Virus record (IMG/VR): IMGVR_UViG_3300026290_000001
Source: a virus
Strand: one strand, 5' to 3'
Length of the DNA: 64,000 bases
Of this stretch, positions 32,131-50,951 are shown in pieces; the first letter of the stretch is position 1, and each line of letters starts with the position of its first letter. The notes beneath the pieces were generated by a model. It ran no database searches, was not told the origin of the DNA, and saw only the letters and a list, made by a program, of their open reading frames with translations. Both the position numbers and the translations under genes were made by a program.

Positions 32131-32173
32131 AATCACAGATTGGTAATGAAATTTAGAAAGGAGTAGAAATACA

Positions 32174-33867: not shown

Positions 33868-33905
33868 TGCTTTCATAAAAACTAAAAAATAAGGAGAATA
33901 AATAT

Positions 33906-34340: not shown

Positions 34341-34387
34341 AACATCATAGAATAACGGTTTGGTGCAAAGTGAGGTGAAATTATTAA

Positions 34388-34552
34388 ATGACTTTTGGAT
34401 TTACTTATTTTATCTCTAAAAGGGATAAAAGCGCAGAAAGAATAATTAATATTGAAGCAGAGTCGGAAGAACAGGCATTTGATAAATACATAAAGTTTTT
34501 AAGTGAGCATCATATGGTTATGGGTGAATCACTTGGAGAAAAGTTAAAATAA
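34388..34552 (+). CDS. small hypothetical protein (54 aa), not in track
   Basis: ATG after GAGGTGAAA SD. Confidence 0.3.
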   Translation: MTFGFTYFISKRDKSAERIINIEAESEEQAFDKYIKFLSEHHMVMGESLGEKLK

Positions 34553-34607
34553 AAACAACACAAAAAATCAATTTGGTTCAAACTTTTACAAAAAACACAA
34601 TATAAAA

Positions 34608-35378
34608 ATGAAAGGAGAATTAGTATATAAGTTGCAATTATACTATAAAGATGAATACATAAGATTATTTCAAGGTGATTGTTTAGAAGTAATGGATAGG
34701 TTAATTGAGAAAGGTGTTAAATTTGATGCAATAATTACTGATCCTCCTTACGGGACTACAGCTTGTAAATGGGATAGTATCATACCATTTGATAGTATGT
34801 GGGAAAGATTAAATAAGTTAATAAAGGATAATAGTGCAATAGTTTTATTTGGTAGTGAACCATTTAGTAGTCATTTAAGAGTAAGTAATATTAAAAATTT
34901 TAAATATGATTGGATATGGAATAAAAAGAAGGGAGGAAGTCCTTTACTTTCTAAAATACAACCAATAAAAATATTTGAAATTATATCTGTTTTTGGGAAA
35001 GGGAAAATAAATTATTATCCAGTAATGGTTGATAGAGATAAACCTAAATCAAGGGGTAAGAATAGAGGAACTATTAGTGATACAACAAATAATTGTTTTT
35101 CAGAAGATAAGATTTATACGCAATATTATCCTAAAGCAATTATAGAATTTTCAAATGCTAGTCAAAAAAATAAATTTCACCCAACTCAAAAACCAGTGGA
35201 GCTAATGGAATATCTTATTAACACATATACACAAGAGAATGAAATTATATTAGATTTTACTTGCGGTTCTGGTACAACATTATTAGCATCAAGAAATCTT
35301 AAAAGAAAATGTATCGGTATTGAATTGGAAGAAAAATATTGTGAAATAACTAAACAAAGATTAGAAAAAGCAAGTTAA
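34608..35378 (+). CDS. DNA methyltransferase, beta-class (DPPY)
   Basis: ITDPPYGT and FHPTQKP ... DFTCGSGTT; true start may be in-frame TTG near 34632 because AAAGGAG lies just after the track ATG. Confidence 0.7.
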   Translation: MKGELVYKLQLYYKDEYIRLFQGDCLEVMDRLIEKGVKFDAIITDPPYGTTACKWDSIIPFDSMWERLNKLIKDNSAIVLFGSEPFSSHLRVSNIKNFKYDWIWNKKKGGSPLLSKIQPIKIFEIISVFGKGKINYYPVMVDRDKPKSRGKNRGTISDTTNNCFSEDKIYTQYYPKAIIEFSNASQKNKFHPTQKPVELMEYLINTYTQENEIILDFTCGSGTTLLASRNLKRKCIGIELEEKYCEITKQRLEKAS

Positions 35379-35505
35379 ATATAAAAACAGCATAAAATTC
35401 TAGTTTGGTTCAAAAATAGACGCCTAAAGATTGGGATTCTTAGAGTATGGATTTTTCAAAATAATTATTAAAATAAAAATATAAATATTGGAGGTAAATA
35501 TATAA

Positions 35506-36345
35506 TTGATAGAATTAAATAATTTTTATATAGGGGAATCTGTTAATTTTATGCGTAAAAATATTCCTGATAATTTTGTAGATTTAACAGTTACAAGTCC
35601 ACCTTATGATGATTTAAGAAAATATAATGGATTTATTTTTGATTATGAAACAATTTTTAAAGAACTTTTTAGAATAACTAAAAATGGTGGAATTGTTGTA
35701 TGGATAATAGGAGATAAGACAGAAAAAGGAACGGAAAGTCTAACAAGTTTTAAACATGCTTTAAGTGCTAAAAATATAGGATTTAATGTTCATGATACAA
35801 TGATATGGTTAAAACCTAATCCAACACCAACTGATCCTAAATGTTTAAGATATTATAATGCTTTTGAATACATGTTCGTTTTTTCTAAAGGAAAACCAAA
35901 AACATGTAATTATATAAAAGAAAAATCTAAAAATACAGGTAAAGAATTTGGTTCAGCTCCAATGAAAAGAGTAGATGGAACTAACAGAGATGACAGAACT
36001 GAAAAGTTAAAGGGTATAAAAATAAAAGACTATAAAATTAAAAGTAATGTATGGGAATGTGCTATAGGTTCAGGGGTATCTAAAGATAAAATTGCTTTTA
36101 AACATCCAGCAATTTTCCCTGAAAAATTAGTTGAAGATCACATAATTTCTTGGACTAATAAAAATGATATTGTACTAGACCCTATGTGTGGTTCGGGTAC
36201 AACGTGCAAAATGGCATGGTTAAACAAGCGTAATTTTATTGGAATTGATATGAGTGAAGAATACATAAATAACATTTGTATACCAAGATTAAATACATAT
36301 GGTTGGGAACAGAATAAAGAAAACGTATTTCAAGATTGCCTATAA
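35506..36345 (+). CDS. DNA methyltransferase, beta-class, SPPY type (paralog group)
   Basis: TSPPYDD and DPMCGSGTT; TTG start; high nucleotide similarity to 40520-41323. Confidence 0.7.
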   Translation: MIELNNFYIGESVNFMRKNIPDNFVDLTVTSPPYDDLRKYNGFIFDYETIFKELFRITKNGGIVVWIIGDKTEKGTESLTSFKHALSAKNIGFNVHDTMIWLKPNPTPTDPKCLRYYNAFEYMFVFSKGKPKTCNYIKEKSKNTGKEFGSAPMKRVDGTNRDDRTEKLKGIKIKDYKIKSNVWECAIGSGVSKDKIAFKHPAIFPEKLVEDHIISWTNKNDIVLDPMCGSGTTCKMAWLNKRNFIGIDMSEEYINNICIPRLNTYGWEQNKENVFQDCL

Positions 36346-36419
36346 ATTGGGCTTTATAATCTATAAAATCATTACCAAATTTGAGTTTGGTTCAAAGTTA
36401 TAGAAAGGAGAAATTATAA

Positions 36420-37256
36420 ATTATCAATACATATTATAAAAATAAATATGCAAGGATATATCAATGTGACAATTTAGAATTATTAAAACAATTACCAAAT
36501 GAATACATAGATTTAATTTATTGTGATATTTTATACAACACTGGTAAGAAATTTAAGGATTATGATGATCAATTAGGCACAACACAAGAAGCAATTAAAT
36601 GGTATAAACCAAGATTAATAGAAATGAAAAGAGTATTAAAGGAAACAGGATCAATTTATTTACATATGGATTTTAGATTAATACATTATTTAAAAGTAAA
36701 AATGGATGAAATATTTCAATTAAATAATTTTAGAAATGAGATTATATGGGATAAAGGATTTAGGGGTACGGAGCAAAAAGAGTTTTATCAACATTCGCAT
36801 GATTCAATATTATTTTATACAAAAACTAATAACTACATATGGAATAAAGTTTTTTGTGAATATGCTGATAAAAATATGAGTAGGTATAATAAAACTGATG
36901 AAGATGGAAATAAATATGCTTTAATTAAAAGAAAAAGAACAGACGGAAGTGTTTATTATGGCAAAACATATCCACAATCAGAAGGAAAGAAAGCAGACGA
37001 TGTATTTAGAGATATAAAAACTTTTTCATCAACAGCTAAAGAAAGAATTGGTTATGATACTCAAAAACCAAAGGCATTATTAGAACGTATTATTAAAGCA
37101 TCTTCTAATGAAGGAGATATAGTAGCAGACTTCTTTATGGGATCAGGCACTACTGGCGAAGTGGCATTAGAATTAGGTCGTAAATTTATTGGTTGTGATA
37201 TTGGGGAAAGGGCATGTGAGATTACTAAAAATAGATTAGATAAAATTATAATATAA
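36420..37256 (+). CDS. methyltransferase-like protein with degenerate motif IV (DILY) and no canonical start; possible pseudogene
   Basis: [27 protein letters not shown] plus C-terminal YDTQKP ... DFFMGSGTT; only ATT/ATC codons follow AAAGGAG before track ATG 36624. Confidence 0.45.
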
Positions 37257-37308
37257 AAACATGACAAAAACTATGTTTTATTTAGATTTTAAAAGAAAGG
37301 AGAAACAT

Positions 37309-37614
37309 ATGAAATTTATTAAAGATATTTCTAATATTATAATATTGCAAAATGATCATTGTAAATTTGAAATCAGAAGTGTACAAGGATTTAATGAAGA
37401 TGAAAATAAAATAATCTTAAAATGTGCCGAAGATATATCAGAGTTTAAAAAAGGTTATGTTTGTGATATGGAATGTCATTTTCCATTAGTTGAAAATGAT
37501 GGAGTTGAAGTTGGTGAAAGAATTGATACGATTCGAGACTTGGTATTGGTTTATATCAATAAAGATATTCAAATGGAATATGCCCCTAGTTTTGAATATG
37601 TATTTTATAAATAA
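37309..37614 (+). CDS. hypothetical protein
   Basis: Track ORF 37261 trimmed to ATG after AAAGGAGAAA SD. Confidence 0.4.
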   Translation: MKFIKDISNIIILQNDHCKFEIRSVQGFNEDENKIILKCAEDISEFKKGYVCDMECHFPLVENDGVEVGERIDTIRDLVLVYINKDIQMEYAPSFEYVFYK

Positions 37615-37659
37615 TAAAACAAAATTTCGATTTTATAACGATTTTAAAAGGAGGATATT

Positions 37660-37890
37660 ATGTTTAAAAAAATTAAAGTTAGAGAATTTTTAGAAGAAGT
37701 TTGCGGAGCAAAAGTTGATTGGATTTCTGGTAATGTAATTAAAGTAAATGAACATTATATTTATTTAGATAAAAAGAAATTTATTTTAAATTATGATTGG
37801 CATTTTTATGGAACAAAAAGAGATATATTAAAAACACTAAAAGAATATGGGTTTGTGATTAAAAAGAAATTACAGTTAAATTATTATTAG
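37660..37890 (+). CDS. hypothetical protein
   Basis: Track ORF with AAGGAGGA SD. Confidence 0.45.
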   Translation: MFKKIKVREFLEEVCGAKVDWISGNVIKVNEHYIYLDKKKFILNYDWHFYGTKRDILKTLKEYGFVIKKKLQLNYY

Positions 37891-38165
37891 AAACGAAAGG
37901 AGAAATATGCATACTGAACTAACAGAGGATCAACTTAAACTAATAAAAAAGTATGGGGAAATTAATCCACCACATCATACTATTGAAGAAATTGAAGAAG
38001 CATTGAAAAAATCATCTGAAATTAAAATAAAATTACAAGAAAAATAAATATCGTGATAAAATCTCTATTTGGTGCAGAAATGGATGGCTATATATTGGGA
38101 TTTGTGGGGCTATAAATTTTGAAAATAAAAACAAAAAATAAAGATAGGAGGTAAATATATAAAAT

Positions 38166-39158
38166 TTGCTTGAATTGAATAAAATATATAATGAAGATTG
38201 TATAATCGGCATGAAAAAATTATTAAAAGATGGTTACAAAAATACTTTTGATTTTATAGAAATTGATCCACCTTATAATATAGGCAAAGATAAATGGGAT
38301 AAATTTAAAAACCATCAAACATATTTAAATTTTATTAATGAAGTTATAAGTTTATCTAATGAATTAATGAGCGATAATGGAACCTTATTTTTATGGCATA
38401 ATAATATCGAGGTGTTATCAGATTTTATTAAATTAATTAATACTACAGATTTAAAATTAATGCAATTATGTATATGGAATAAATATTATAAATATAATGA
38501 TGACGGTAATTTGAATAATCAATACGGATTTTTAAATGGATTTATTCAAAGTGATTTAAATAGGAATTATCAAAAAATGTGCGAATATATTTTATATTAC
38601 ACTAAACAAAACGAAGAATTAACTGAATATAATGAAAAAGACCCATTTAAATCACTAAAGGAATATTTTTTTAATGCCCAAAAATCTTCTGGTTTATCAA
38701 GAAATAAAATTAATCAAATATTGGGGCATAGACAATCTGAGCATACTTTTTATACTAAAACTCAATGGACTTTTCCAACAGAAGAAACATATTTAGAATT
38801 ACAAAATATAATGAATCTACCTATCCCTTATAATGATTTAAAAAATACATATGAAACAATGAGATATACATATAATTCAGAGAAAAACAATTATCGAAGT
38901 TGTATTTGGAATTACCCGATAAGTAAAGAATCAAAACACAAGACAGAGAAACCGTTACAATTGTATTATGATTTATATGAAATACATACAAAAAATAATA
39001 GTAAATGTTTATTCCCGTTTGTGGGTAGTGGTAATAATATTTTAAGTTTATTTAAAATAAATAATTTTGATGGAGGGAAACGAGAGTTTGTAGGTTTTGA
39101 AACTGACAAAACATGGTTTACTTATATAAATGAAAAAATAGATTTAAGAATCCCGTAA
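38166..39158 (+). CDS. DNA methyltransferase, beta-class (DPPY)
   Basis: IEIDPPYN and C-terminal FPFVGSGNN; TTG start; 3' end overlaps a GAATCCC/GGGATTC hairpin. Confidence 0.65.
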   Translation: MLELNKIYNEDCIIGMKKLLKDGYKNTFDFIEIDPPYNIGKDKWDKFKNHQTYLNFINEVISLSNELMSDNGTLFLWHNNIEVLSDFIKLINTTDLKLMQLCIWNKYYKYNDDGNLNNQYGFLNGFIQSDLNRNYQKMCEYILYYTKQNEELTEYNEKDPFKSLKEYFFNAQKSSGLSRNKINQILGHRQSEHTFYTKTQWTFPTEETYLELQNIMNLPIPYNDLKNTYETMRYTYNSEKNNYRSCIWNYPISKESKHKTEKPLQLYYDLYEIHTKNNSKCLFPFVGSGNNILSLFKINNFDGGKREFVGFETDKTWFTYINEKIDLRIP

Positions 39159-39232
39159 TATTGGGATTCTTAAACCCAAAAATCAACACCAAACTTCGGT
39201 TTGGTTCAAAGTTATAGGAAGGAGAAAATAAT

Positions 39233-39427
39233 ATGTTTGATTGTAGATTCGCTAAAAGTATTCTATTGGATAAAAATGAAGATGATACTTATCATATGAC
39301 AATAAAAGGAGATATTTATAATCTTGATCCTGAAGCGGAAATTGATTTTTCTAGAGTGAAAATTATTAATTTTGATATTGAGGCATTAGCAACAACTGGG
39401 ACAATATGTAAAATAAAAATAATATAA
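39233..39427 (+). CDS. hypothetical protein
   Basis: Track ORF with AAGGAGAAA SD. Confidence 0.4.
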   Translation: MFDCRFAKSILLDKNEDDTYHMTIKGDIYNLDPEAEIDFSRVKIINFDIEALATTGTICKIKII

Positions 39428-39521
39428 AATTTTTGTTTGGTTAAGAAATTTATAATTATTATAGGGATTGATTTTACCATAATTTTAATATATAATAAAA
39501 ATAAAAACGGAGGTTTTATAT

Positions 39522-39692
39522 ATGGCGATTAAATTAGAATGTGATAAAATCATTCCAAAGTGTAGTGATTGTAAATATAATAAGGATTATTCTTCTTGGC
39601 AACATAAAATTCCTTGTGGAAAACAATTCTGTGTATATGGTTGTAATGTATGTAAAAATCCATGTGATGCAAAGGAGAATATGTCTTGGTAA
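39522..39692 (+). CDS. small Cys-rich protein (56 aa), not in track
   Basis: Twelve Cys in 56 aa; ATG after ACGGAGGT SD. Confidence 0.35.
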   Translation: MAIKLECDKIIPKCSDCKYNKDYSSWQHKIPCGKQFCVYGCNVCKNPCDAKENMSW

Positions 39693-39720
39693 AAATTAAT
39701 ATTAATAAAGGAGTTATAGT

Positions 39721-40461
39721 TTGTATAAATCGCCTCTTAGATATCCAGGAGGTAAAAGCAGGGCGATAAAAATAATTATCGAGTATTTTCCGAAAAGTAT
39801 AAAAGTTATGAGTTCTCATTTTGTAGGAGGAGGATCAATTGAACTTTATTTATCTGAAAATAATAAAATAATTGCGTATGATAATTTCGATCTGCTTATT
39901 AACTTTTGGAATCAATTAAAATATAAAAATAAAAATTTACATAATACAATATTAAAATATTACCCGTTAACAAAAGAACAATTTTTAGATATACAAAAAA
40001 ATATTTATAATTCAGATGATGAAGTTGAAATGGCCGCTAAATTTTATGTTTTAAATAGATGTAGTTTTTCAGGTAGTACATTAAGCGGTGGAATGTCACT
40101 AAATCATCCAAGATTTAATATTAATTTAATACATAAACTTCAGGAAGTAAATTTAAAAAATATTGAGTTTATTTGTATGGATTTCAAAGAATCAATATTA
40201 TTACATCAAAATAATTTTAAGTATTTAGACCCACCCTATTATATTGAAAATAATTTATATGGAGTAAAAGGAGGGTTACATAAAAATTTCGATCATATTG
40301 GTTTGAATGGTATTTTAAAACAATCATCTAATTGGGTATTAAGTTACAATGATTGTGAATACATAAGAAAACTTTATGAAGGATGCAAAATAATACAAGT
40401 TGATTGGAAATACGGAATGAGTAAAGATAAAAAATCTAATGAAATTCTTATAATAAATTAG
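39721..40461 (+). CDS. Dam-like N6-adenine DNA methyltransferase (alpha-class, D12 family)
   Basis: PLRYPGGK near N-terminus and YLDPPYY later, the D12/Dam arrangement; TTG start. Confidence 0.75.
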   Translation: MYKSPLRYPGGKSRAIKIIIEYFPKSIKVMSSHFVGGGSIELYLSENNKIIAYDNFDLLINFWNQLKYKNKNLHNTILKYYPLTKEQFLDIQKNIYNSDDEVEMAAKFYVLNRCSFSGSTLSGGMSLNHPRFNINLIHKLQEVNLKNIEFICMDFKESILLHQNNFKYLDPPYYIENNLYGVKGGLHKNFDHIGLNGILKQSSNWVLSYNDCEYIRKLYEGCKIIQVDWKYGMSKDKKSNEILIIN

Positions 40462-40519
40462 TAATATAAAAACAATATAAATATTTGGTTTGGTCATGAA
40501 ATATGAAAGGAGATTATAT

Positions 40520-41323
40520 TTGATAGAATTAAATAATTTTTACATAGGCGAGTCTGTTAATTTTATGCGTTACAATATTCCAGACAACTACATTGATTTA
40601 ACTATTACTTCACCACCTTATGATGATTTAAGAAAATATAATGGATTTATATTTGATTATCAAAGTATGTTTAAGGAATTATATAGAGTTACTAAAGACG
40701 GTGGAATTGTAGTTTGGGTAGTAGGAGATAAAACTGAAAATGGTAGTGAAACATTAACAAGTTTTAAACATGCTTTATATGCTAAAGAAATCGGTTTTAA
40801 TGTTCACGATACACAAATTTATTATAAGAATAATCCTATACCAACAACAGGCAATAGATATCATCAACACTTTGAATATATGTTCGTATTTAGCAAGAAT
40901 AAACCAAGGGTATTTAATCCAATCAAGGAAGATTGTAAATATAGTGGTTTGGCTAATATGAAAAATAGAGGCAAGGATGGTTCATTAAATTATACTAAAA
41001 TTGAAAGAACTAAAGATAAAAAGGTAGGTAATGTTTTCTTTTATTCTATTGGAGGGGGTATTACTACTAAAGATAAAATTGCTTATAGTCATCCTGCGTT
41101 GTTTCCAGATAAATTAGCCGAAGATCAAATAATAACTTGGAGCAATAAAGAAGATATTATTTTTGACCCAATGTGCGGTAGTGGTACTACTTGTAAAATG
41201 GCATGGTTAAATAAAAGAAATTTTATTGGAATTGATATAAGTGAAGAATATATAAATGATATTTGTATACCTAGACTAAATATATATGGTTGGCAACAAA
41301 AGCAAAATATAAAAATATCATAA
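40520..41323 (+). CDS. DNA methyltransferase, beta-class, SPPY type (paralog group)
   Basis: TSPPYDD and DPMCGSGTT; track ORF 40490 trimmed to TTG after AAAGGAGA SD. Confidence 0.7.
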   Translation: MIELNNFYIGESVNFMRYNIPDNYIDLTITSPPYDDLRKYNGFIFDYQSMFKELYRVTKDGGIVVWVVGDKTENGSETLTSFKHALYAKEIGFNVHDTQIYYKNNPIPTTGNRYHQHFEYMFVFSKNKPRVFNPIKEDCKYSGLANMKNRGKDGSLNYTKIERTKDKKVGNVFFYSIGGGITTKDKIAYSHPALFPDKLAEDQIITWSNKEDIIFDPMCGSGTTCKMAWLNKRNFIGIDISEEYINDICIPRLNIYGWQQKQNIKIS

Positions 41324-41428
41324 AATAAAAATCCCAATTTCTAGGGATTTACAAAACTCAAAAACATGATCAAAACTTCGTTTTGTTACATCAATAAAAC
41401 AATAAAATAAATTAAGGAGGGAAATAAA

Positions 41429-41884
41429 ATAGCGGATTTTGATAACAATAGATTTGCTTCAAAAAATCAAGAGTACGCAACACCTTGGGAATTATTTAAT
41501 AAGATAAATGAAGAATTTAATTTTACCTTAGATGTGTGTGCAGATGAAAATAATCATAAAGTTGATACATATTTTACGGAAGAACAAAATGCTCTTATCC
41601 AAAATTGGAAAGGAGTATGTTGGATGAATCCACCTTATAAGGATATGAAAAAATGGGTTATAAAAGCATACGAAGAATCAGTTAAAAATGATAGTATTGT
41701 GGTTTGTTTAATTCCAGCAAGAACTAATACCAAATGGTGGCATGAGTATTGCATGAAAGGTGAAATAAGATTTATTAAAGGTAGACCAAAATTTGAAGGA
41801 TGTATTCATGGTTTACCACAACCATTAGCAATTGTTGTTTTTGGAAAAGAATATAAAAATACATATGGTTCATTAGCAATTTAG
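41429..41884 (+). CDS. phage-type Dam N6-adenine methyltransferase (PF05869-like), probable ATA start
   Basis: YATPWELF ... FTLDVCADENNHK ... WKGVCWMNPPYKD; conserved region begins at ATA 7 nt after AAGGAGGG; track starts at internal GTG 41534. Confidence 0.6.
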   Translation: MADFDNNRFASKNQEYATPWELFNKINEEFNFTLDVCADENNHKVDTYFTEEQNALIQNWKGVCWMNPPYKDMKKWVIKAYEESVKNDSIVVCLIPARTNTKWWHEYCMKGEIRFIKGRPKFEGCIHGLPQPLAIVVFGKEYKNTYGSLAI

Positions 41885-42014
41885 TAAAAATATCAAGCAA
41901 ACAATGATATATAGGCATTTTCAACTTATCACAAATGCCTATATATTGGGCTTTTACAAAAATCATTACCAAAATATCATTTTATATTAATTAGAAAGGA
42001 GAAACAAAATATAA

Positions 42015-42584
42015 TTGAGTAAAAAATATAACATTATATATGCTGACCCACCTTGGAAACCTACTGAGAGTGGTACAGGAGTTAGAGGTACGGCAGATTT
42101 AAAAAAACGATATCAAGGTGTAATGAGTATAGAAGAAATATGTGCTTTACCAGTAAAAGATATATGTGAAGATACATGCATACTGTTTTTATGGGTTACA
42201 TTTCCAAGATTACAAGAAGGAATGAAAACTATTGAAGCGTGGGGATTTCAATATTATGGGTTGGGATTTGATTGGATTAAAACTAATCTTAAAAGTGGAA
42301 CTCCATTTTGGGGAATGGGTTATTATACTAGACAAAATTCAGAAATATGCTTAATAGGAGTAAAAAAGGATAAAAATAAAAGAATTAAACCACAAGTTAA
42401 AAATATTTTATCTGTAGTTCATTCACCAAGAAGAGAACATAGTCAAAAACCTGATGAAATAAGAGATTACATAGTTAAAATTTGTGGTGATTTACCTAGA
42501 ATAGAATTATTTGCTAGACAAAAAGTTGAAGGTTGGGACGCATGGGGCAATGAAATTGAAAATGATATTATATTAAATACATAA
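42015..42584 (+). CDS. MT-A70-family N6-adenine methyltransferase
   Basis: IIYADPPW (DPPW motif) with downstream FLWV and QKP; TTG start. Confidence 0.7.
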   Translation: MSKKYNIIYADPPWKPTESGTGVRGTADLKKRYQGVMSIEEICALPVKDICEDTCILFLWVTFPRLQEGMKTIEAWGFQYYGLGFDWIKTNLKSGTPFWGMGYYTRQNSEICLIGVKKDKNKRIKPQVKNILSVVHSPRREHSQKPDEIRDYIVKICGDLPRIELFARQKVEGWDAWGNEIENDIILNT

Positions 42585-42667
42585 AATAAAAATTATCATA
42601 AAAGTCTGAATTGGTTTAGAGTTAATAAAAATGAAAAATAAAAATAGGGAGGTATCTAATACATAAA

Positions 42668-43438
42668 TTGATTGAATTGAATACTATTTATAATGAAGAT
42701 TGTATTAACTTTATGAAGAAACTACCTAATGAATCTATTGATTTAATAATTGCCGATCCACCTTATTTTGAAATATGCGGAGAGTTTGATTTTATATGGA
42801 AATCATTAGATGACTATTTAAATTGGTCTAAAGAATGGATTTTACAATGTTATAATATTTTAAAACCATCAGGCAGTATTTATATATGGGGTAAAATTGG
42901 ATTTGGTAAGGGGTATTCTTTATTTAAAATTGCAGATTGGATAGAGAATGAAAAACTGTTTATTATAAAAAATTGGATTACTCAACGTAATACAAGAGGG
43001 AGAGGAACAAAGAAAGGGTATATAGAGGCAAGAGAAGAACTTCTGTTTTGCGTAAAGTCTAATCAATGTACTTGGAATATTGCTTATACCGAAGAAAAAT
43101 CTAATAGAAAAGATTTAGGATTTGATGGCAAACCTAGAAAAAATGAGTTTAAAAGATGCTCTGATGTATGGATTGATATAGCTGAAGCAAGTCAATCAAG
43201 TAATGAAAGATTTAAAACATTTAATGGTAAAACTTTTCCAACAGTTAAAGCACAAAAATTATGTAATAGAATTATTTTGGCAAGTTCTAATGAAAATGAT
43301 TTAGTTTATATTCCCTTTGCTGGTTCTGGAAGTGAAATTGAATCTTGTATAAAAAATAAAAGAAATTGGATTGCGACAGAAATTAATAATCAATACATAA
43401 ATGAAATCATTGAACCTAGAATTAAACGTATAATATAA
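42668..43438 (+). CDS. DNA methyltransferase, beta-class (DPPY)
   Basis: IIADPPYFE and C-terminal IPFAGSGSE; TTG start with conserved 5' end. Confidence 0.7.
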   Translation: MIELNTIYNEDCINFMKKLPNESIDLIIADPPYFEICGEFDFIWKSLDDYLNWSKEWILQCYNILKPSGSIYIWGKIGFGKGYSLFKIADWIENEKLFIIKNWITQRNTRGRGTKKGYIEAREELLFCVKSNQCTWNIAYTEEKSNRKDLGFDGKPRKNEFKRCSDVWIDIAEASQSSNERFKTFNGKTFPTVKAQKLCNRIILASSNENDLVYIPFAGSGSEIESCIKNKRNWIATEINNQYINEIIEPRIKRII

Positions 43439-43665
43439 AAAATAAAAATCATGATAAAATAAGTGTTTTATCATAATATTGCAGAAATCAGTATTTTGGT
43501 AGGTTATCAACAAATACACACAACAAAGCCCTAAATGGTGGGAATGAAAAGGTATTTTAAGTGGATTAACTCTACCAAAGTAAAAAATATTTGAACCAAA
43601 TGCGTCTTTTATTCAAAGTTTATTAAAAACATAAAATAAATATAAAGAAAAGAGGATTATATATA

Positions 43666-44370
43666 TTGAAACATATTTTAAGTTTTAGTGGCGGCAAAGA
43701 TTCAACCGCAATGTTACTCATAATGTTAGAGAGAGAATATCCAATAGATGAAATTATATTTTGCGATACTGGTAAAGAATTTCCTGCTTTATATAGACAT
43801 ATTGATAAAGTTGAAGAATACATAAACCAACCTATAACTAGGCTTAAAGGAGAAAAAACTTTTGATTATTGGATGTTCGAACATGAAAAAACCAAAGGTA
43901 AACATTTAGGTAAAAAGGGTTATGGTTGGGCAGACACCAGAGCAAGATGGTGTACAGCATATTTTAAGCGTGAAATTATGAATAAATACATAAAAGAAAA
44001 ATATAATAATGAATATAAAGAGTATGTAGGTATTGCTTATGATGAGTTTAAAAGATATGAGAAAACACAAAATGGTCATAAAAAATATCCTTTAATTGAA
44101 TGGAAAATAACTGAAGGTATGGCTCTAAAATATTGCTATGATAAAGGATTTGATTGGGAAGGAGTATACACACATTTTGAACGGGTATCTTGCTGGTGCT
44201 GCCCTTTAAAAAATCAGAGAGAATTATATATGCTTTATTCTTTCTATCCTGAATTATGGGCAGAACTCAAAGATATGGATAGTAGAGCATGGAACCAGTT
44301 TAAAAGAGATTACAGTGTTCAGGATTTAGAAGATAAATTTAGGGGATGGCAAGACATAATAAAAATATAA
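43666..44370 (+). CDS. PAPS-reductase-family PP-loop ATPase-like protein
   Basis: ILSFSGGKDSTAML PP-loop near N-terminus and C-terminal CWCCP cysteine cluster. Confidence 0.6.
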   Translation: MKHILSFSGGKDSTAMLLIMLEREYPIDEIIFCDTGKEFPALYRHIDKVEEYINQPITRLKGEKTFDYWMFEHEKTKGKHLGKKGYGWADTRARWCTAYFKREIMNKYIKEKYNNEYKEYVGIAYDEFKRYEKTQNGHKKYPLIEWKITEGMALKYCYDKGFDWEGVYTHFERVSCWCCPLKNQRELYMLYSFYPELWAELKDMDSRAWNQFKRDYSVQDLEDKFRGWQDIIKI

Positions 44371-44434
44371 ATATTTACTTTCTTTATAGTATGGTGTATA
44401 ATAAATATATCATATCTATATAGGAGGTTAAATT

Positions 44435-44644
44435 ATGAAAACATATAAAACTGAATCAGGAGAAGAATGGTTATATTTTGATGAATGGTTAGTAGAAAAC
44501 AGTTATTATAAATGGAAAAAACAATATGATATTTTAGCAAGTACGGGGACAGATGAAGAAGAAATAGATAGGATTAAAGACGATTTATTAAAACAATTCT
44601 ATGATTTTTGTGAAGAATATGGGTATGTTGGTCAGGAAGTATAA
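44435..44644 (+). CDS. hypothetical protein
   Basis: Track ORF with TAGGAGGT SD. Confidence 0.45.
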   Translation: MKTYKTESGEEWLYFDEWLVENSYYKWKKQYDILASTGTDEEEIDRIKDDLLKQFYDFCEEYGYVGQEV

Positions 44645-44764
44645 TTTATAATTTTTGTGTTTTACGAACCCCTAAATAATGGGGTTTGTGAAACCAAAAA
44701 TCATGATAAAACTCATCTTTTGTGTTGATATTAAAATTTAAATATAAGGAGGTAATATTATTAA

Positions 44765-45517
44765 TTGTTTGAATTAAATAAAATATATTGTGTTGATTGT
44801 TTAGAAGGGATTAAAAATATAGAAAGTGGCAGTATTGATATGGTATTTTTTGATCCTCCTTTCAATTTAAACAAAGATTATGGAATTAAAATTAATGATA
44901 ATTTAATAAAAGAAAAATATTTAAACTGGCAGTATGAAATATTAAAAGAATCTATTAGAGTGCTATGTGATAATGGGGCAATAATTTATCATACTATCCC
45001 AAAATGGGCATTTAAAATAGCTAATTATCTTGATGAACAAGGAATGGTTTTTCAAAATTGGATTTGTTGGAATGAATCAGGATCAACACCTACCCCTTCA
45101 AGATTATATCCTAAACATTATCCTATTCTTTGGTTTTCTAAGAATAAACTCAAAACTTTTAATAAACAATATATTCCCATAGAAAGATGCAGAAAGTGCA
45201 ATACTACTATAAAAGATTATGGTGGCAAATTTAAAGATTTAAAAGAAATAGATGGTGAAAAAGTAACTGTTTTAAGTGATGTATGGGACGATATACATAG
45301 AATAAGACATAATAAAAATAAAAATAGAAAATCAAATGAACTTCCCGAAATTTTAATGGAAAGAATAATTAACTTATATTCTAAAGAAAATGATATAATT
45401 TTAGACCCATTTTCAGGTAGTGGGACAACATGTAAAATAGCAAAGAAACTAAATAGACAATATATTGGATTTGAAATTAATCCTGAATACATAAAAATCT
45501 CAAAAGAACGTATTTAA
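44765..45517 (+). CDS. DNA methyltransferase, beta-class (DPPF)
   Basis: VFFDPPFN and DPFSGSGTT; TTG start. Confidence 0.7.
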   Translation: MFELNKIYCVDCLEGIKNIESGSIDMVFFDPPFNLNKDYGIKINDNLIKEKYLNWQYEILKESIRVLCDNGAIIYHTIPKWAFKIANYLDEQGMVFQNWICWNESGSTPTPSRLYPKHYPILWFSKNKLKTFNKQYIPIERCRKCNTTIKDYGGKFKDLKEIDGEKVTVLSDVWDDIHRIRHNKNKNRKSNELPEILMERIINLYSKENDIILDPFSGSGTTCKIAKKLNRQYIGFEINPEYIKISKERI

Positions 45518-45544
45518 AACAACAAAATAATATTATTGACGTTG

Positions 45545-45573
45545 TTGACTTTGTTTGTGAAAATTGATATAAT
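45545..45573 (+). promoter_or_regulatory. sigma-A-type promoter (TTGACT-17-TGaTATAAT)
   Basis: Direct reading, extended -10. Confidence 0.5.
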
Positions 45574-45598
45574 TAATAAAAATGTAGGAGGTATATTT

Positions 45599-45859
45599 AT
45601 GGCAGTACGCAGACAAAGGGCAACAACTAGTGCAGAAATAATGGATAAAGATATTAAAATAGTAATTAAAAAATCAAAAGTTCGCTATAGAAGTGTAGAA
45701 TCAAAATCTCATGGTTTTGTTAATGAATTTTGGATTGAAAAAATTGATGATTTATTTTTTTCAGGAGGTAAAATAAGTGAAGAAAGAATTTATCAACATT
45801 GGAAATTCAACTTTGATAAAAATAAGTGGGAGTGTATAGAAGACAAATCTAAAAATTAA
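45599..45859 (+). CDS. hypothetical protein
   Basis: Track ORF 45536 trimmed to ATG after TAGGAGGT SD. Confidence 0.4.
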   Translation: MAVRRQRATTSAEIMDKDIKIVIKKSKVRYRSVESKSHGFVNEFWIEKIDDLFFSGGKISEERIYQHWKFNFDKNKWECIEDKSKN

Positions 45860-45972
45860 TTTAATAAGAAAAATACAAATCCCATTATATCGGACTTCAT
45901 TTTTATAAAAATCATGATAAAACTTGTCTTTTGTCATGATATTAAAACAAAAATAAATATGGAGGTTAAAAT

Positions 45973-47394
45973 ATAATTAAATTAAATAAGTTTGCATTAG
46001 TACAATTAACTCCAAAAGATATGCGAAGCCAAGATAGTATAAATTTAGGATTAGAAATTATATCTGAAATAGTTAAAAAACAAGGTTGGCAATTAGATAC
46101 ATATAAATTCGGAGATAAAATTCAAGATGTTAATTCATATGATATTATAGGGTTTAGTTTATTCTATTTTACACAAATGTTAAATTTAGTTCCATTCCTA
46201 AAGAGTAATAATATTAAACCATTAAGTAGTAAAAGAAACAATCAACCACTATTATTAGCTGGCGGTCAAGGTATTCAAAATCCTAAACCAATTAGTAAAT
46301 TTATTGATGTATTTTGTATGGGTGAGGGTGAGGGGGTTTTGGAATATATCTTAGAAAATTATAAAAATAAAAATATTTTATCAAACCATAAGTCTTTGTA
46401 TATACCAAATATAAATGATAATTTTATATTCAACTCAATAAAAGATGTTGATTCTAAACCTATAATTTATGGTAAAAATAGCATGATAGAATTAACGAGG
46501 GGATGTAAAAATAGATGTAAGTTTTGTCAGTATGGATGGACAAATGGTAAATATCGAGAAAAAAACATCGAACTAGTAAAACAACAAATATTAGAGGTTA
46601 AAGATAAAGGCATTAAAAATATTAACTTGTTAAGTTGTAATTTGGGTGGTTATTCTAAGATAAATGAAGTTCTTGATTTTTGTATAGAAGAAAATATTAG
46701 ATTAATGAATACCGATATGAGAATTGACGAATATAGTGAAGAAATAGCTATAAAATTAGACCTACTAAAAGTGAGAACTCTAAAAGTTGGAGTAGAAAGC
46801 TTTTCTGATCAAACACGAATTGGTATTAATAAGAATATTTCAAAAATACAATTAGATACTTTTATTGACAGAGCTTTGAAGCATAATATATCAAATTTAC
46901 ATTTTTATTTAATATACGGACTTCCAAACGAAGAAAACTATAATGAATGGTTTAATTATATGGAATACATAAAAAATAGAATAAAATCTGTTGATAGAAA
47001 TATAAGAATTGAATTTAGTATTACTAATTTTGAACCAGCAATATATACACCCTTTGAAAAAAGTCCTTTAATTAATTTCCAAGACAAGCATAAATTTATG
47101 AGAGAATATTTAATAAAACAAGAAGAATTGGGTTATATAAAACAACCCGCACAAACAAAAGATTATAAAAATAGTCATGGAAGATTAGGCAGAAAAGAAC
47201 GAAGTTATAATATTGGAATGTGGTTACTACATGGGGACGAAACTGTAGGGGATGTGTTATATGAATTAAACATTAAAGGAATAGGTAGGAGTATAAATGA
47301 AAAGATTTATAATCAAATTTATAAAATATGCCAATCAAAAACTGATGTTTATCAAATAAGAAACATTCAAGATTTAAATGAAAATATATGGTGA
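45973..47394 (+). CDS. radical SAM protein with N-terminal B12-binding-like domain, probable ATA start
   Basis: TRGCKNRCKFCQYGW (CxxxCxxC); N-terminal FALVQLTP ... LGLEIISEIVKKQGW fits the cobalamin-binding-domain pattern; track ATG 46021 has no SD, ATA lies 7 nt after GGAGGTT. Confidence 0.55.
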   Translation: MIKLNKFALVQLTPKDMRSQDSINLGLEIISEIVKKQGWQLDTYKFGDKIQDVNSYDIIGFSLFYFTQMLNLVPFLKSNNIKPLSSKRNNQPLLLAGGQGIQNPKPISKFIDVFCMGEGEGVLEYILENYKNKNILSNHKSLYIPNINDNFIFNSIKDVDSKPIIYGKNSMIELTRGCKNRCKFCQYGWTNGKYREKNIELVKQQILEVKDKGIKNINLLSCNLGGYSKINEVLDFCIEENIRLMNTDMRIDEYSEEIAIKLDLLKVRTLKVGVESFSDQTRIGINKNISKIQLDTFIDRALKHNISNLHFYLIYGLPNEENYNEWFNYMEYIKNRIKSVDRNIRIEFSITNFEPAIYTPFEKSPLINFQDKHKFMREYLIKQEELGYIKQPAQTKDYKNSHGRLGRKERSYNIGMWLLHGDETVGDVLYELNIKGIGRSINEKIYNQIYKICQSKTDVYQIRNIQDLNENIW

Positions 47395-47470
47395 TGTCCA
47401 TGCCTATAAATTGGGATTCTCAACACTCAAAAACATGATAAAACTAGTTTTTGGTCATGAAATTAAATGC

Positions 47471-47499
47471 TTGACAAATATTAATTAAAATAGTAATAT
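47471..47499 (+). promoter_or_regulatory. sigma-A-type promoter (TTGACA-17-TAATAT)
   Basis: Direct reading. Confidence 0.5.
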
Positions 47500-47525
47500 A
47501 AAGATACTGCGAAGGGAGGAAGGTT

Positions 47526-49397
47526 ATGAGTGAAATAGAAAATCTCAAACAACAATTAGATTACCATGATGATTTGTATTACAATCAAGACGATCCTGAA
47601 TTATCTGATGTGGAATATGATGCTTTAAAACAAGAATATCTTAATTCAGTTAATCAACAAGAATACAACTATATACCTGGGCAAGCACAATTTAAAAAAT
47701 TCACACACACATTCCCTATTAAATCATTGGGGAAAATAAATACTATTGAACAAGCAAGAAAAGAAATTGAAAGGTTATATCCAGTAGTTATTGAACCTAA
47801 ATATGATGGATTAACCTTAGTGTTATATGGTGAAGGGAAAGTAGTAACTAGAGGTAGTGGTCAAATCGGAGAAGATGTTACTGCAAATGCTTCTAGATTT
47901 ATGCGTACTTATAATCCATATGGTTTACCTATTCGTGGCGAAGCAATTATGCCTATATCAGTGTTCCATGAAATTAACAAACAAAGGGATGTAGAAGGTA
48001 AGGAATTATTTAAAAATCCAAGAAATGCAATAGCAGGTATTCTTAGAAATAAAGATAATAGTAATATCCCTAAAGGGTTAAGATTTATTGCTTATGAAAT
48101 CGTAGGATCAGCAGAATCCCATATTCAACAATTATTAGAACTTAAAAAATACTATGATATACCTGAAGCAGATACTATTTGGAATTATAGTGAAATTGAT
48201 GATGCAGTAAAATTCATAGAAAACTTTGATCGTTCTAAATTAGATTATGAAATTGATGGATTAGTTATTAAATCTAATAAGACAAATGCATTAGATATTT
48301 TTGGTGAAACTGAACATCATCCGAACCATAGTGTTGCCTACAAGTTTCCTTCTCAGGGAGAATGGACTGTATTAAAATCTATAACTTGGCAAACTGGTCG
48401 CACGGGCAGAATTACCCCTGTGGCAGAATTGGAACCAGTAGATATTATGGGAAGTACAATCGAACGTGCTACATTGCATAATATAGGGTATATTAGTGGT
48501 TTAGATTTACAGCTATATGATAAGGTGTTTTTAGTGAAAAGTAATGATATTATTCCCGCTGTGATTAAATGTGAGCATACTAAAAATAGTAAACCTATTG
48601 AAATTATAAACAAGTGTCCTTCATGTGGAAGTGAATTAAAAATTATCAATGATCAATTATTCTGTATTAATGATGATTGTTTGGCAAAATTATTATATAG
48701 AACTTCTCATATGGTTAGTCGAGATGCCCTTAATATAGATGGTCTTAGTGAGCAAACCATTTTAAAAATGATTGAAGCAGGATATATTAATAAACCTTGG
48801 GATATATTTGATGTTACTGAAACAGAAATATTAAAATTAGATGGTTTTGCAAAGAAATCTGCCAAAAAAATATATGAAAATATTCAAAATGCAAGAAATT
48901 GTGATTTTGATAGAGCAATTTACGCTTGTGGAATTGAACTGATAGGCAGAAAGGTTAGTAAAGATATTGCAAAAGAATTTGAGACTATTGATAATTTGTT
49001 ATATTGTTTAAGACGTGATGATGCTAGAAGTATATTAGGTATGATTGATGGTATTGGTAATACCACTATAGATAGTTTATTGAATAACGTTAATATTTTA
49101 GAAAATATGGTGGATTATTTAAGTATTAGTAGTGTTGAAAAGAAAGAAACAACTTTTAAATCTCTTGAAAATATTACATTTGTAGTTACCGGAAATGTAG
49201 AAACATTTAAAAACCGTAAAGAGTTAGAAGAATTGATCACTTCTCTTGGTGGTAAGTTAAGTGGATCAGTTTCAAGTAAAACTAATTATTTAATCAACAA
49301 CGATATTACCTCCAATTCTGGTAAGAATAAAAAGGCAAACGAATTAGGGGTAGAAATTATTAGTGAAATACGATTTAATGAAATGATAGGTAGGTAA
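47526..49397 (+). CDS. ligA: NAD-dependent DNA ligase
   Basis: N-terminal LDYHDDLYYNQDDPELSDVEYDALKQEY, adenylylation motif EPKYDGL, Cys4 zinc finger CPSCGSEL...CINDDC, C-terminal BRCT-like VVTGNVETF. Confidence 0.85.
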   Translation: MSEIENLKQQLDYHDDLYYNQDDPELSDVEYDALKQEYLNSVNQQEYNYIPGQAQFKKFTHTFPIKSLGKINTIEQARKEIERLYPVVIEPKYDGLTLVLYGEGKVVTRGSGQIGEDVTANASRFMRTYNPYGLPIRGEAIMPISVFHEINKQRDVEGKELFKNPRNAIAGILRNKDNSNIPKGLRFIAYEIVGSAESHIQQLLELKKYYDIPEADTIWNYSEIDDAVKFIENFDRSKLDYEIDGLVIKSNKTNALDIFGETEHHPNHSVAYKFPSQGEWTVLKSITWQTGRTGRITPVAELEPVDIMGSTIERATLHNIGYISGLDLQLYDKVFLVKSNDIIPAVIKCEHTKNSKPIEIINKCPSCGSELKIINDQLFCINDDCLAKLLYRTSHMVSRDALNIDGLSEQTILKMIEAGYINKPWDIFDVTETEILKLDGFAKKSAKKIYENIQNARNCDFDRAIYACGIELIGRKVSKDIAKEFETIDNLLYCLRRDDARSILGMIDGIGNTTIDSLLNNVNILENMVDYLSISSVEKKETTFKSLENITFVVTGNVETFKNRKELEELITSLGGKLSGSVSSKTNYLINNDITSNSGKNKKANELGVEIISEIRFNEMIGR

Positions 49398-49400
49398 AAT

Positions 49401-49640
49401 ATGAACGATAAAATCTATATTATACCTAGAGAAGATAAACCAATAAAATTCATTATTGAAGAATTACCATGTCCTATCTGTTCACAAATTGGATATGATT
49501 TTAGATGTGAACATGCCAAAAGTAGTTTTAAAGATTTAATATATACAATATCTTGTACTAATTTTAATCATTGTGAAAATGCAGAGAATATATCATTGAA
49601 ATTCAATGAGTTAATACAAGATGAGTTGTTAACCACTTGA
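49401..49640 (+). CDS. small zinc-finger-like protein
   Basis: CPICSQ ... CEH. Confidence 0.45.
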   Translation: MNDKIYIIPREDKPIKFIIEELPCPICSQIGYDFRCEHAKSSFKDLIYTISCTNFNHCENAENISLKFNELIQDELLTT

Positions 49641-49950
49641 CAGATTAGTAAAATAAATATATAATAAAATTACAACAAAATATCAAAAATATCAATTTTA
49701 CAAATCCCAATATATAGCCATTCTTGAAGGTGAAAATCAACACCAAATCTGCGTTTTGTCACAACTTTTATGAATGCTAATATACAGGGCTTGAGAATTG
49801 CTATTTTAAGCGAAAATACGGTAAAATCAATGGTTTTAAGTAATTACTAAAATTAGCTTTACATAAAGTCCAATATATAGGCGTTTATAATTCTAAAAAT
49901 CGTGACAAAAGTGTCATTTTGTTTAGAAATTATAGAAAGGGGAATTAAAT

Positions 49951-50136
49951 ATGGATAAAAATTTTTTATTGCTTTGTTCATATGAGAATATGGAAGGAAT
50001 GCTAGAAAGAGATTTTGAATGGTATCAAACAGAAGAAAACATGAGAGAAAGCATTGAAGATAAAAAAGAATTTATAAAAGATTTTACGGTCAATAAAGCA
50101 ATAGAAATATTACAAGTTAGAAATATAGAAATATAA
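49951..50136 (+). CDS. hypothetical protein
   Basis: Track ORF with AAAGGGGAA SD. Confidence 0.4.
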   Translation: MDKNFLLLCSYENMEGMLERDFEWYQTEENMRESIEDKKEFIKDFTVNKAIEILQVRNIEI

Positions 50137-50192
50137 TTTAAATAATAAACCTTAGTAATAAAAACATTAAAAGGAGATGAATTATACATAAT

Positions 50193-50951
50193 TTGATTGA
50201 ATTGAATAAAATTTATAATGAAGATTGTATAGGTGGAAGGGGTATGTGTTTAATCCCAAATGAATCAATCGATATGATTTTATGTGATCTTCCGTATGGA
50301 ACTACGATGGCGAAATGGGATAAGATTATCAACCAAGAAGAATTGTGGACGCAGTATAGAAGGATAATTAAACCCAGAGGGGCAATTGTACTAACTTCTA
50401 GTCAGCCATTTTCAAGTGCTTTAATATATAAAAACCTAGACATTTATAGGCATTCATGGGTTTGGGAAAAGAACAATTCTGCAGATTATGCCAATGCAAA
50501 TTGTAGACCAATGAAAATACATGAGGAAGTATTGGTATTTTCATTCGCACATGATGTTGCTCCTGCTAAAGTAAAGATGATTTATAATCCACAGGGGCTA
50601 ATACCAGTTAATAAGCCCAATCGGAGAGGTAGACATAGTGAAACAACAGGTCATTTTAGAGAGAATGAGTACATACAAAAATACACAAACTATCCTACTA
50701 CAATATTGAGGTTTGCTTCAGATAAAGATAAAATTCACTCTACACAAAAACCTGTGGCGTTGTTTGAATATCTTATAGAAACATATAGTAATGAAGGTGA
50801 TTTGGTTTTAGATAATTGTATAGGCTCAGGCACAACAGCGATTGCGTGTATAAACATCAAACGTAAATTTATAGGGTTTGAAAATGACAATACATATTTT
50901 GAGTTAGCAAACAAAAGAATAGAAGAACATAAATGTAAAATAAATATTTGA
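50193..50951 (+). CDS. DNA methyltransferase, beta-class, variant motif IV (DLPY)
   Basis: ILCDLPYGT and HSTQKP ... DNCIGSGTT; TTG start; 5' 40 nt near-identical to 38166 and 42668. Confidence 0.65.
   Translation: MIELNKIYNEDCIGGRGMCLIPNESIDMILCDLPYGTTMAKWDKIINQEELWTQYRRIIKPRGAIVLTSSQPFSSALIYKNLDIYRHSWVWEKNNSADYANANCRPMKIHEEVLVFSFAHDVAPAKVKMIYNPQGLIPVNKPNRRGRHSETTGHFRENEYIQKYTNYPTTILRFASDKDKIHSTQKPVALFEYLIETYSNEGDLVLDNCIGSGTTAIACINIKRKFIGFENDNTYFELANKRIEEHKCKINI

Follow-up and report, generated by a model that had tools for sequence, protein, structure and literature searches.

The analysed window is the whole 64,000-nucleotide stretch of the IMG/VR virus record IMGVR_UViG_3300026290_000001, a phage-like segment of about 28% GC in which essentially all genes lie on the plus strand. 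Two genes of this window are considered here, namely, the gene of a PP-loop ATP pyrophosphatase-like protein with the phosphoadenosine phosphosulfate (PAPS) reductase fold and the gene of a radical S-adenosylmethionine (SAM) enzyme, hereafter rSAM, both embedded in an island of DNA methylase genes. Analysis of related loci showed that the association of PAPS_reduct genes with rSAM genes is real, recurrent and facultative. An earlier reading of this DNA, made from the letters alone (the sequence-only reading), had reported the motifs SFSGGKDS and CWCCP in the PP-loop protein and CxxxCxxC in the rSAM protein; the open reading frames (ORFs) and motifs are present between positions 43,666 and 47,394 on the plus strand. 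IMG/VR contigs with lengths of 65 and 100 kb share the sequence of the window, as do metagenome contigs, the longest of which reaches 138 kb; no nucleotide-level relatives were detected among 50,697 deposited phage records.

The PP-loop protein

The motif SFSGGKDS occupies residues 6–13 of the PP-loop protein, and CWCCP residues 176–180. The protein matches the Pfam model PAPS_reduct with 43.7 bits (cutoff 22.5) and belongs to the large PHROG family phrog_424 (1.2e-49). At least 3,620 clusters are homologous to it, mostly stand-alone proteins of about 230 aa from Clostridia-type phages. The SGGKDS(T) loop, C96 and C176-x-C178-C179 are invariant in a 44-member alignment of the family, which also shows a DE..R motif. 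C96, C176, C178 and C179 likely constitute an iron–sulfur (Fe-S) or sulfur-relay site.

The AlphaFold model of the protein is confident (pLDDT 89.4). Its structural neighbours are headed by TtuA, an Fe-S tRNA thiolase, and the adenylylsulfate (APS)/PAPS reductases, followed by TilS, LarE and NcsA. Among the defence-system profiles of PADLOC, the closest is SspD (8.4e-28, positions 1–205 of 277), a model with no curated cutoff and a much poorer match than phrog_424, followed by BrxP and DndC. Profiles and the structure model thus agree with the sequence-only reading in placing the protein in the fold of DndC.

True CysH carries a C-terminal catalytic cysteine motif (ECGLH-type) and a degenerate PP-loop. 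The PP-loop protein of the window ends with ...DKFRGWQDIIKI, has no cysteine after C179 and keeps an intact SGGKDS loop, and the CysH model (NCBIfam PRK02090) matches it with only 18.4 bits against a cutoff of 154, over residues 3–64. The arrangement of cysteines and PP-loop is that of the Fe-S-dependent sulfur transferases TtuA, NcsA, DndC, SspD and BrxP, not that of CysH. The protein is thus taken to be an enzyme of the ATP-pyrophosphatase type in which a site for Fe-S or sulfur relay is probable; it would act in the manner of sulfur-inserting PP-loop enzymes, yet it belongs to no characterised system. Its relatives in deposited phages adjoin DNA methylase genes (phages phiCD119, PhiF1 and NatCom_991) or are located between the terminase and portal genes.

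The radical SAM protein

The rSAM protein consists of a Rossmann B12-binding-like N-domain (PF19864), a CX3CX2C core and a helical C-terminal domain. It belongs to the radical SAM superfamily, with the CX3CX2C motif (C162-x3-C166-x2-C169 in the numbering of the listed 457-aa ORF) situated in a partial TIM barrel. The AlphaFold model is confident (pLDDT 94.7). MgmA (PDB 9ccb), a B12-dependent methylase, comes out first in structure comparison, and the nearest sequence family is the uncharacterised TIGR03960 (NCBIfam, 130.8 bits with a cutoff of 462.3). Pfam, NCBIfam and structure comparison therefore bear out the cobalamin-domain-like N-domain and radical SAM core that had been recognised from the letters alone. 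Only the cysteines of the CX3CX2C trio are kept among homologues, which indicates that the enzyme has no auxiliary cluster. The numerous homologues with invariant catalytic residues, together with the confident AlphaFold models, indicate that the PP-loop and rSAM ORFs are real genes and not chance ORFs.

A search with the rSAM profile against 1.84 billion representative proteins gave only 52 representatives with at least 180 bits, after which the score drops to TIGR03960/DUF2344-type proteins of 480–880 aa. Among 185,579 species genomes scanned with a sequence pattern, only 5 relatives were found, all on contigs of metagenome-assembled genomes. Accordingly, the rSAM clade is compact, rare and apparently phage-specific, and many of its members are located on contigs of 80–600 kb. 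No close homologue was found in deposited phages, and BFVD contains no close structure, its weak matches (TM-score up to 0.52) being proteins with generic or no functional names.

The start codon of the rSAM gene is probably ATT at 45976 rather than ATG at 46021, because the conserved N-terminus is encoded upstream of this ATG. Homologues begin with M(K/N)KFALVQLTPKDMR, the reading frame of the window stays open upstream of ATG 46021, and the in-frame codons there encode the conserved first strand KFALVQLTPKD. The sequence GGAGG is located at 45962–45966, with ATT 45976 following after 9 nt; the same ATT arrangement is found in locus L003 (9950–10003), the rSAM of which is 73% identical to that of the window, and ATG stands at that place in locus L012. 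Other homologues use ATG for the same N-terminus (MKKFALVQLTPKDMR), and gene callers had truncated the window protein to the internal ATG. The use of ATT may reflect deliberately low translation.

Linkage of the two gene families

A PAPS_reduct gene scoring above the Pfam cutoff is located within 3 kb of an rSAM gene of the close clade in 5 of 27 lineages and in 0 of 96 control loci (Fisher p = 3.7e-4), where lineages are defined by 70% rSAM identity without formal phylogenetic correction, the loci come from pattern-seeded searches and not from a random sample, and the control is another rSAM group, not matched random genes. The control is a more distant group of phage rSAMs, sampled at 96 non-redundant loci with 603 kb of flanking sequence. 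For this comparison, 80 metagenome loci were added and PAPS_reduct neighbours were detected with a broader hidden Markov model (HMM) and Pfam; later annotation of neighbours was based on local HMMs and seed searches.

The five linked lineages are represented by the window and by loci L104, L128/130/131, L021/L127 and L146. Direct adjacency is observed in three of them: in L104, the start of the rSAM gene shares 25 nt with the gene of a 293-aa PAPS_reduct protein, in L128/130/131 the gap is 4 bp, and in L021/L127 the genes are adjacent. In L146, the distance is 2.7 kb. Linked rSAMs occur at no fewer than three separate places in the tree of the clade, and their partners belong to different PAPS_reduct subtypes, with cysteines arranged as CC...CxxC versus C...CxCC in the window.

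Similar linkage was found for a short rSAM family (about 290 aa) with the core RGCxRxCxFC, related to the core of the window rSAM (hhalign probability 93%). A same-strand PAPS_reduct-like gene is present within 2.7 kb in 15 of 80 loci of this family, corresponding to 7 of 29 lineages; ten of these 15 loci have it within 1.4 kb, which is closer than expected from uniform placement within the 5-kb neighbourhood (binomial p = 0.002). The short family is very abundant in phages and prophages, with at least 8,000 clusters, most of which have no Pfam hit on record; examples are L224 (5114–5995), L243 (6690–7544), L232 (6761–7921), gp19 of Clostridium phage phiCT453B (a C. tetani phage with the rSAM gene only) and gp14 of Bacteroides phage BKO1-TP3. 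Viewed from the other side, an rSAM-type gene is located within 1.4 kb in 6 of 78 other loci of window-type PAPS-like genes, namely, five genes of the short family (three of them adjacent) and one overlapping CX3CX2C ORF of another type, recognised by motif only.

A tblastn search with the PAPS-like protein of the window against the first 14 rSAM loci, combined with BLAST clustering of neighbours, had given the result that the pair is not conserved: the window-type protein was absent around the rSAM gene in the first nine non-identical loci, including L003, and clustering gave no conserved neighbour. This result was overturned as an artefact of sensitivity and sampling, since divergent PAPS_reduct partners were found by Pfam-annotated contexts, the metagenome scan and the broader HMM. 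The conservation of the pair across related phages, put forward in the sequence-only reading as a check, is thus recurrent and at the same time facultative, with about 80% of the sampled rSAM lineages having no partner nearby. No fusion of the PAPS_reduct and rSAM proteins was found among the best 120 hits for each of three queries. Several other enzymes are encoded occasionally near members of the rSAM clade, including a phosphoribosyltransferase (L128, 1948–2631), a pyridoxal phosphate-dependent PALP enzyme (L010, 10233–11099) and ThyX-like proteins (L008, 2150–3166; L024, 9228–9905); none of these neighbours recurs enough to be interpreted.

The methylase island and other genes of the window

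The location of both genes inside a methylation island, beside a methyltransferase and a DNA ligase, was confirmed (Table 1). Twelve ORFs of the island (27.8–51 kb) match DNA methylases in Pfam or PHROG, and three further ORFs (starting at 38166, 39721 and 40490) are assigned to methylases by DPPY/SPPY motifs only. The island is unusually dense, with many N6_N4 paralogues, and includes a DUF5662 gene at 31504–32130 among the methylase genes; a single phage appears to mimic many host methylation patterns.

Table 1. Position of the gene pair, its neighbours and the methylase island in the window
Feature	Coordinates	Strand	Characteristics
PP-loop ATP pyrophosphatase-like protein, 234 aa	43666..44370	+	PAPS-reductase fold
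Phage-clade radical SAM enzyme	45976 (probable start)..47394; listed ORF 46021–47394, 457 aa	+	Pfam Radical_SAM_N2 69 bits, Radical_SAM 56 bits
DNA methyltransferase island, ~15 methylase ORFs	27777..50951	+	N6_N4, Dam, D12, MT-A70 and phrog_799 types
Small ORF, 69 aa, between PP-loop gene and methylase	44435..44644	+	No family match
N6/N4 DNA methyltransferase, 250 aa	44765..45517	+	PF01555 E 2.5e-53; PADLOC type II MTase 8.8e-71
ORF, 107 aa as listed	45536..45859	+	No significant family match
NAD-dependent DNA ligase	47526..49397	+	Pfam ligase adenylation, OB, HhH and BRCT domains

The N6/N4 methylase gene is located between the PP-loop gene and the rSAM gene. The 69-aa ORF has no match in Pfam, PHROGs, NCBIfam or PADLOC and is seen only in contigs identical to the window; the same four collections gave nothing significant for the 107-aa ORF. 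A promoter-like site at 45545–45573 (TTGACT, 17 nt, TG-n-TATAAT with an extended -10; 11 of 12 consensus matches) lies within the listed 5' end of the 107-aa ORF, so its real start may be an internal ATG at about 45599, and a transcript from this site could possibly also cover the rSAM gene. No plus-strand terminator was found between the PP-loop and rSAM genes, and promoter-like sites across the region are below the shuffled expectation; operon structure is therefore uninformative. The gene of NAD-dependent ligase does not recur as a neighbour of rSAM elsewhere, and nothing ties the ligase to the gene pair, for which it is context only.

Replication genes of the window include those of the alpha subunit of DNA polymerase III (Pol III), the beta clamp, RecJ, a DnaB-like helicase (an ORF of 516 aa) and the NAD-dependent ligase. 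An ORF resembling LAGLIDADG homing endonucleases is found at 58893–59732, between the RecJ-like and Pol III alpha genes. The window also encodes, at 7662–8759, a protein with the GmrSD_N (DUF262) domain (Pfam 8.7e-21; phrog_2598), which is the N-terminal domain of type IV restriction enzymes acting against modified DNA. A set of genes for tRNA repair is represented by rtcB (22024–23253) and the gene of an RNA ligase with an N-terminal tRNA-binding/OB domain (26355–27437), which presumably counter host anticodon nucleases.

Substrate indications from genomic context

In related loci, rSAM genes are found near genes acting on DNA. The rSAM gene of L003 is flanked by genes of a C5 methylase, two N6_N4 methylases and Mom; in L008, the mom gene is one gene away, and methylases are encoded near rSAM in L019 and L114. 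In the protein P0247 (L102, 3362–5965, 867 aa), the rSAM part is joined to an N-terminal region matching phrog_21315 (E 6.5e-14), a family with a ParB-like N-terminal part and a C-terminal part of the MT-A70 methylase type, matched by the MT-A70 methylase of the window itself. Phage domains of the ParB fold typically occur as fusions with DNA methylases (PMC12704722). Methylase and Mom neighbours and this one ParB-like fusion suggest DNA as the target.

A DNA methylase is encoded nearby in 35 of 80 loci of window-type PAPS-like genes (within 6 kb) and in 33 of 80 loci of short rSAM genes (within 5 kb), compared with 12 of 96 loci in the control. The more distant phage rSAM group (L025–L096, IMG/VR) is 21–29% identical to the window rSAM and has a stereotyped position, with a ParB-like gene upstream in 49 of 96 loci and genes of the terminase large subunit and portal immediately downstream. 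As for tRNA genes, none were found in the window, and they occur near rSAM in only 3 of 27 related loci; linkage of rSAM to tRNA genes was accordingly rejected.

Proposed function of the gene pair

The favoured explanation, held with somewhat less than even confidence, is that the pair represents cooperating enzymes of nucleic-acid modification, probably of DNA, which tend to travel together in phages. The link between the families, seen as adjacent pairs in unrelated phages and within the methylase block of the window, points to a shared role in nucleic-acid modification and argues against a metabolic label. The DNA hypermodification function proposed from context in the sequence-only reading gains from a linkage enriched in several independent lineages; the part of that proposal concerning the DNA substrate stays conditional.

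The two enzymes would carry out a covalent post-replicative modification, most probably of the phage's own DNA, adding a non-methyl layer over heavy methylation. By analogy with the chemistry of TtuA, NcsA, DndC, SspD and BrxP, the PP-loop enzyme would use ATP to adenylate an oxygen of the substrate (a base carbonyl or backbone phosphate), and its cysteine/Fe-S site would deliver sulfur or another nucleophile, replacing the adenylated oxygen. Reductive cleavage of SAM by rSAM is expected from membership in the superfamily, and the resulting 5'-deoxyadenosyl radical may then serve for a second step, in which an unactivated carbon of the same substrate would be attacked. This step could be a cobalamin-dependent methyl transfer by rSAM or, alternatively, a MiaB-like C–H sulfuration in which the PP-loop protein would give the sulfur-donating cluster in trans; the latter option is suggested by the fact that rSAM resembles MiaB and RimO yet does not contain their sulfur-donating auxiliary cluster. 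SAM-radical chemistry has been claimed for DndC, a claim questioned by others (PMC10853773), which makes a partnership of PP-loop and rSAM enzymes in DNA sulfur chemistry worth testing.

A bolder version, in which the pair is a widespread two-enzyme phage module installing a new non-methyl DNA modification, is considered unlikely, though not negligible. The candidate products in that case, to which the same low expectation applies, would be a base carrying a thio or methylthio group, or a modified backbone produced in the absence of Dnd, Ssp or Brx partners. The pair is plausibly a new phage module of nucleic-acid modification, built from a combination of enzyme families that is uncharacterised so far; DNA chemistry of an entirely new category is the less likely outcome.

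A number of observations weigh against cooperation of the two enzymes. Linkage is facultative, being found in about 19% of lineages, and 22 of 27 rSAM lineages have no nearby PAPS_reduct gene; in L003, no PAPS-like gene is present in the 14.8 kb examined (10 kb upstream and 3.4 kb downstream of rSAM). Nearly all window-type PAPS-like genes have no rSAM partner nearby, and members of the window's own rSAM clade were not found near any of the 78 other window-type PAPS-like loci. The two genes of the window have three others between them. No third gene common to loci containing the pair was found, nor was a DNA-recognition subunit, a DndD/SspC-type ATPase or a cysteine desulfurase as a shared component. 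Concerning a DNA target in particular, the P0247 fusion is represented by a single 6-kb contig, methylases near the window's own rSAM clade are no commoner than in the control (3 of 27 versus 12 of 96), and the enzymes with the closest solved structures have proteins or tRNA as substrates (MgmA, RimO and MiaB; TtuA and TilS), not DNA. Part of the co-location could merely reflect shared accessory-gene regions. Since most relatives have no partner nearby, each enzyme can evidently also work alone.

The strongest alternative is that the two genes have independent functions as stand-alone accessory or anti-defence genes gathered in the same variable early or replication-proximal regions. This is a possibility to be taken seriously, although on the improbable side. 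It agrees with the unpaired state of most relatives and with the interruption of the pair in the window, as well as with the different sizes of the families (at least 3,620 PAPS-like clusters versus about 52 rSAM clade representatives) and with the occurrence of the PAPS-like and short rSAM families in methylase islands (a methylase near 41–44% of loci). However, the enrichment is specific (5 of 27 versus 0 of 96), the distances are shorter than those of uniform placement in the same 5-kb neighbourhood, and abutting or overlapping genes occur in several independent lineages and in two rSAM families. Moreover, the window rSAM clade is not enriched in methylase neighbours, so a generic effect of methylase islands leaves its PAPS_reduct neighbours unexplained.

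A role of the enzymes in modification of RNA (tRNA or rRNA), for example, thiolation or methylation of the anticodon loop for tuning translation or shielding tRNAs from host anticodon nucleases, is unlikely. The nearest solved structures, TtuA, TilS and NcsA for the PP-loop protein and MiaB and RimO for rSAM, belong to enzymes modifying RNA or protein, and the same phage has the tRNA-repair set of RtcB and RNA ligase; nevertheless, tRNA genes are missing from the window and scarce near rSAM, the rSAM protein has neither the auxiliary-cluster cysteines of MiaB and RimO nor a Pfam TRAM domain, and both the single fusion and the genes that recur as neighbours point to DNA (methylases, Mom and the ParB-like N-terminal part of a DNA methylase family).

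Still less expected is an anti-defence action on a host protein or small molecule, such as consumption of SAM or change of a signalling nucleotide, with no modification of nucleic acids. The best structural match of rSAM, MgmA, does modify a protein, and rSAM weakly matches the PADLOC candidate-defence component PDC-M51A (4e-9), but no conserved substrate gene or peptide is located beside rSAM, and the context points to no particular defence pathway. Finally, it is very improbable that the PP-loop gene is an auxiliary metabolic gene of sulfur assimilation encoding a true PAPS/APS reductase, with rSAM belonging to unrelated metabolism: this would accord with the Pfam and PHROG names ('phosphoadenosine phosphosulfate reductase', 'auxiliary metabolic gene') and with virome papers, in which such PAPS reductase genes are listed as auxiliary metabolic genes (PMC11318856), but the score far below the CysH cutoff, the full SGGKDS loop, the C-terminus with no catalytic-cysteine motif and the position of the gene among DNA methylases rather than sulfur-metabolism genes all speak against it.

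Few unexplained gene families are as common in phages as the 'phage PAPS reductase', the members of which are routinely annotated as auxiliary genes of sulfur metabolism; phage rSAM genes, too, are mostly unassigned. If the bolder version is true, action on DNA would be demonstrated for a B12-type rSAM for the first time, and the very large family of the 'phage PAPS reductase' would receive a function. A new DNA modification, if one results, would add new chemistry to the anti-restriction repertoire of phages, extend rSAM/cobalamin enzymology to DNA and possibly provide tools for DNA labelling. Both gene types occur together in cultured phages such as Bacteroides phage BKO1-TP3 (PQ571269), which has rSAM gp14 and PAPS-like gp23, so the question is directly testable.

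Comparison with known systems

The PP-loop protein resembles DndC, SspD and BrxP in its fold, SGGKDS loop, conserved cysteine cluster and DNA-modification context, but it is much shorter and has no extra domain of the BrxP kind. The DndC model (TIGR03183) matches it with 19.7 bits against a cutoff of 290.4, and Pfam or PHROG scans of 53 ORFs of the window gave no match to a DndD-like ATPase or to DndE. The minimal Ssp set is sspBCD, including the SspB nickase and the SspC ATPase (PMC12914056); SspB and SspC were not found beside the PP-loop gene, the neighbours of which are methylases, small ORFs and the ligase. BrxP, needed for DNA phosphorothioation, is a PAPS-reductase domain fused to a DUF4007/SspB-like domain and is accompanied by BrxC, BrxZ and BrxL (PMC12914056). 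The PP-loop protein, by comparison, is a single-domain protein of 234 aa matching positions 136–332 of 779 of the BrxP model, and no BrxC/Z/L-type ORFs were found. Unlike the Dnd, Ssp and BREX-4 systems, the window contains no DndD/SspC/BrxC ATPase, no DndE/SspB partner and no cysteine desulfurase; the gene belongs to a phage and not to a host defence island, and a fraction of phages pair it with an rSAM gene, which is absent from those systems.

In comparison with TtuA, NcsA (Ncs6) and APS reductase, only about 146–155 residues align at 17–20% identity, the spacing of cysteines is different (C...CxCC), and the PP-loop protein has neither tRNA-binding or zinc-finger domains nor the C-terminal catalytic motif of the reductases.

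The rSAM protein shares 12–17% identity with class B rSAM methylases (MgmA 9ccb, CysS, TsrM and TokK) and falls below all their family cutoffs; the Pfam B12-binding model PF02310 does not match it. The B12-independent enzymes AprD4, RimO and MiaB have the same fold and score almost as well as class B methylases; cobalamin binding and methylation by rSAM are putative. We know of no class B rSAM enzyme acting on DNA. The sequence-only reading was right about the folds of both proteins. Neither protein belongs to the DndC, SspD or BrxP systems or to any characterised family of class B methylases, with curated cutoffs failed and required partners absent.

Methylthiotransferases (MiaB, RimO and MtaB) have an auxiliary [4Fe-4S] cluster bound by three N-terminal cysteines, and their C-terminus is formed by a TRAM domain. 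Identity of rSAM as a methylthiotransferase was rejected, as it has no auxiliary-cluster cysteines and no TRAM domain by Pfam, and its match to TIGR00089 reaches only 37.3 bits (cutoff 251).

The PF19864 N-domain is shared by rSAM and TIGR03960, and TIGR03960/DUF2344 proteins form the next tier after the phage clade. The phage rSAMs differ from them in length (410–470 aa versus 480–880 aa) and are essentially absent from the 185,579 species genomes. DUF2344, carried by the bacterial relatives, is present neither in the rSAM protein nor on record in those related loci that have precomputed Pfam annotation. The literature searched contained nothing on TIGR03960, DUF2344, PF19864 or the TIGR03960-like phage clade and no report of pairing of PAPS_reduct with rSAM; in virome papers, PAPS_reduct and rSAM genes are both simply listed as auxiliary metabolic genes.

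Pairs of PP-loop and rSAM enzymes are known in base modification, namely, QueC/QueE and Ncs6/Elp3. The 7-deazaguanine modification by QueC/QueE (with DpdA, FolE and QueD) was rejected for the window pair on the basis of family and fold scores. QueC/QueE nevertheless resembles the window pair as a precedent, with a PP-loop enzyme and an rSAM enzyme building a phage DNA hypermodification. For an rSAM enzyme alone, a precedent in phage DNA hypermodification is provided by gp53 of phage M6, the rSAM of thymidine hypermodification (PMC8989533).

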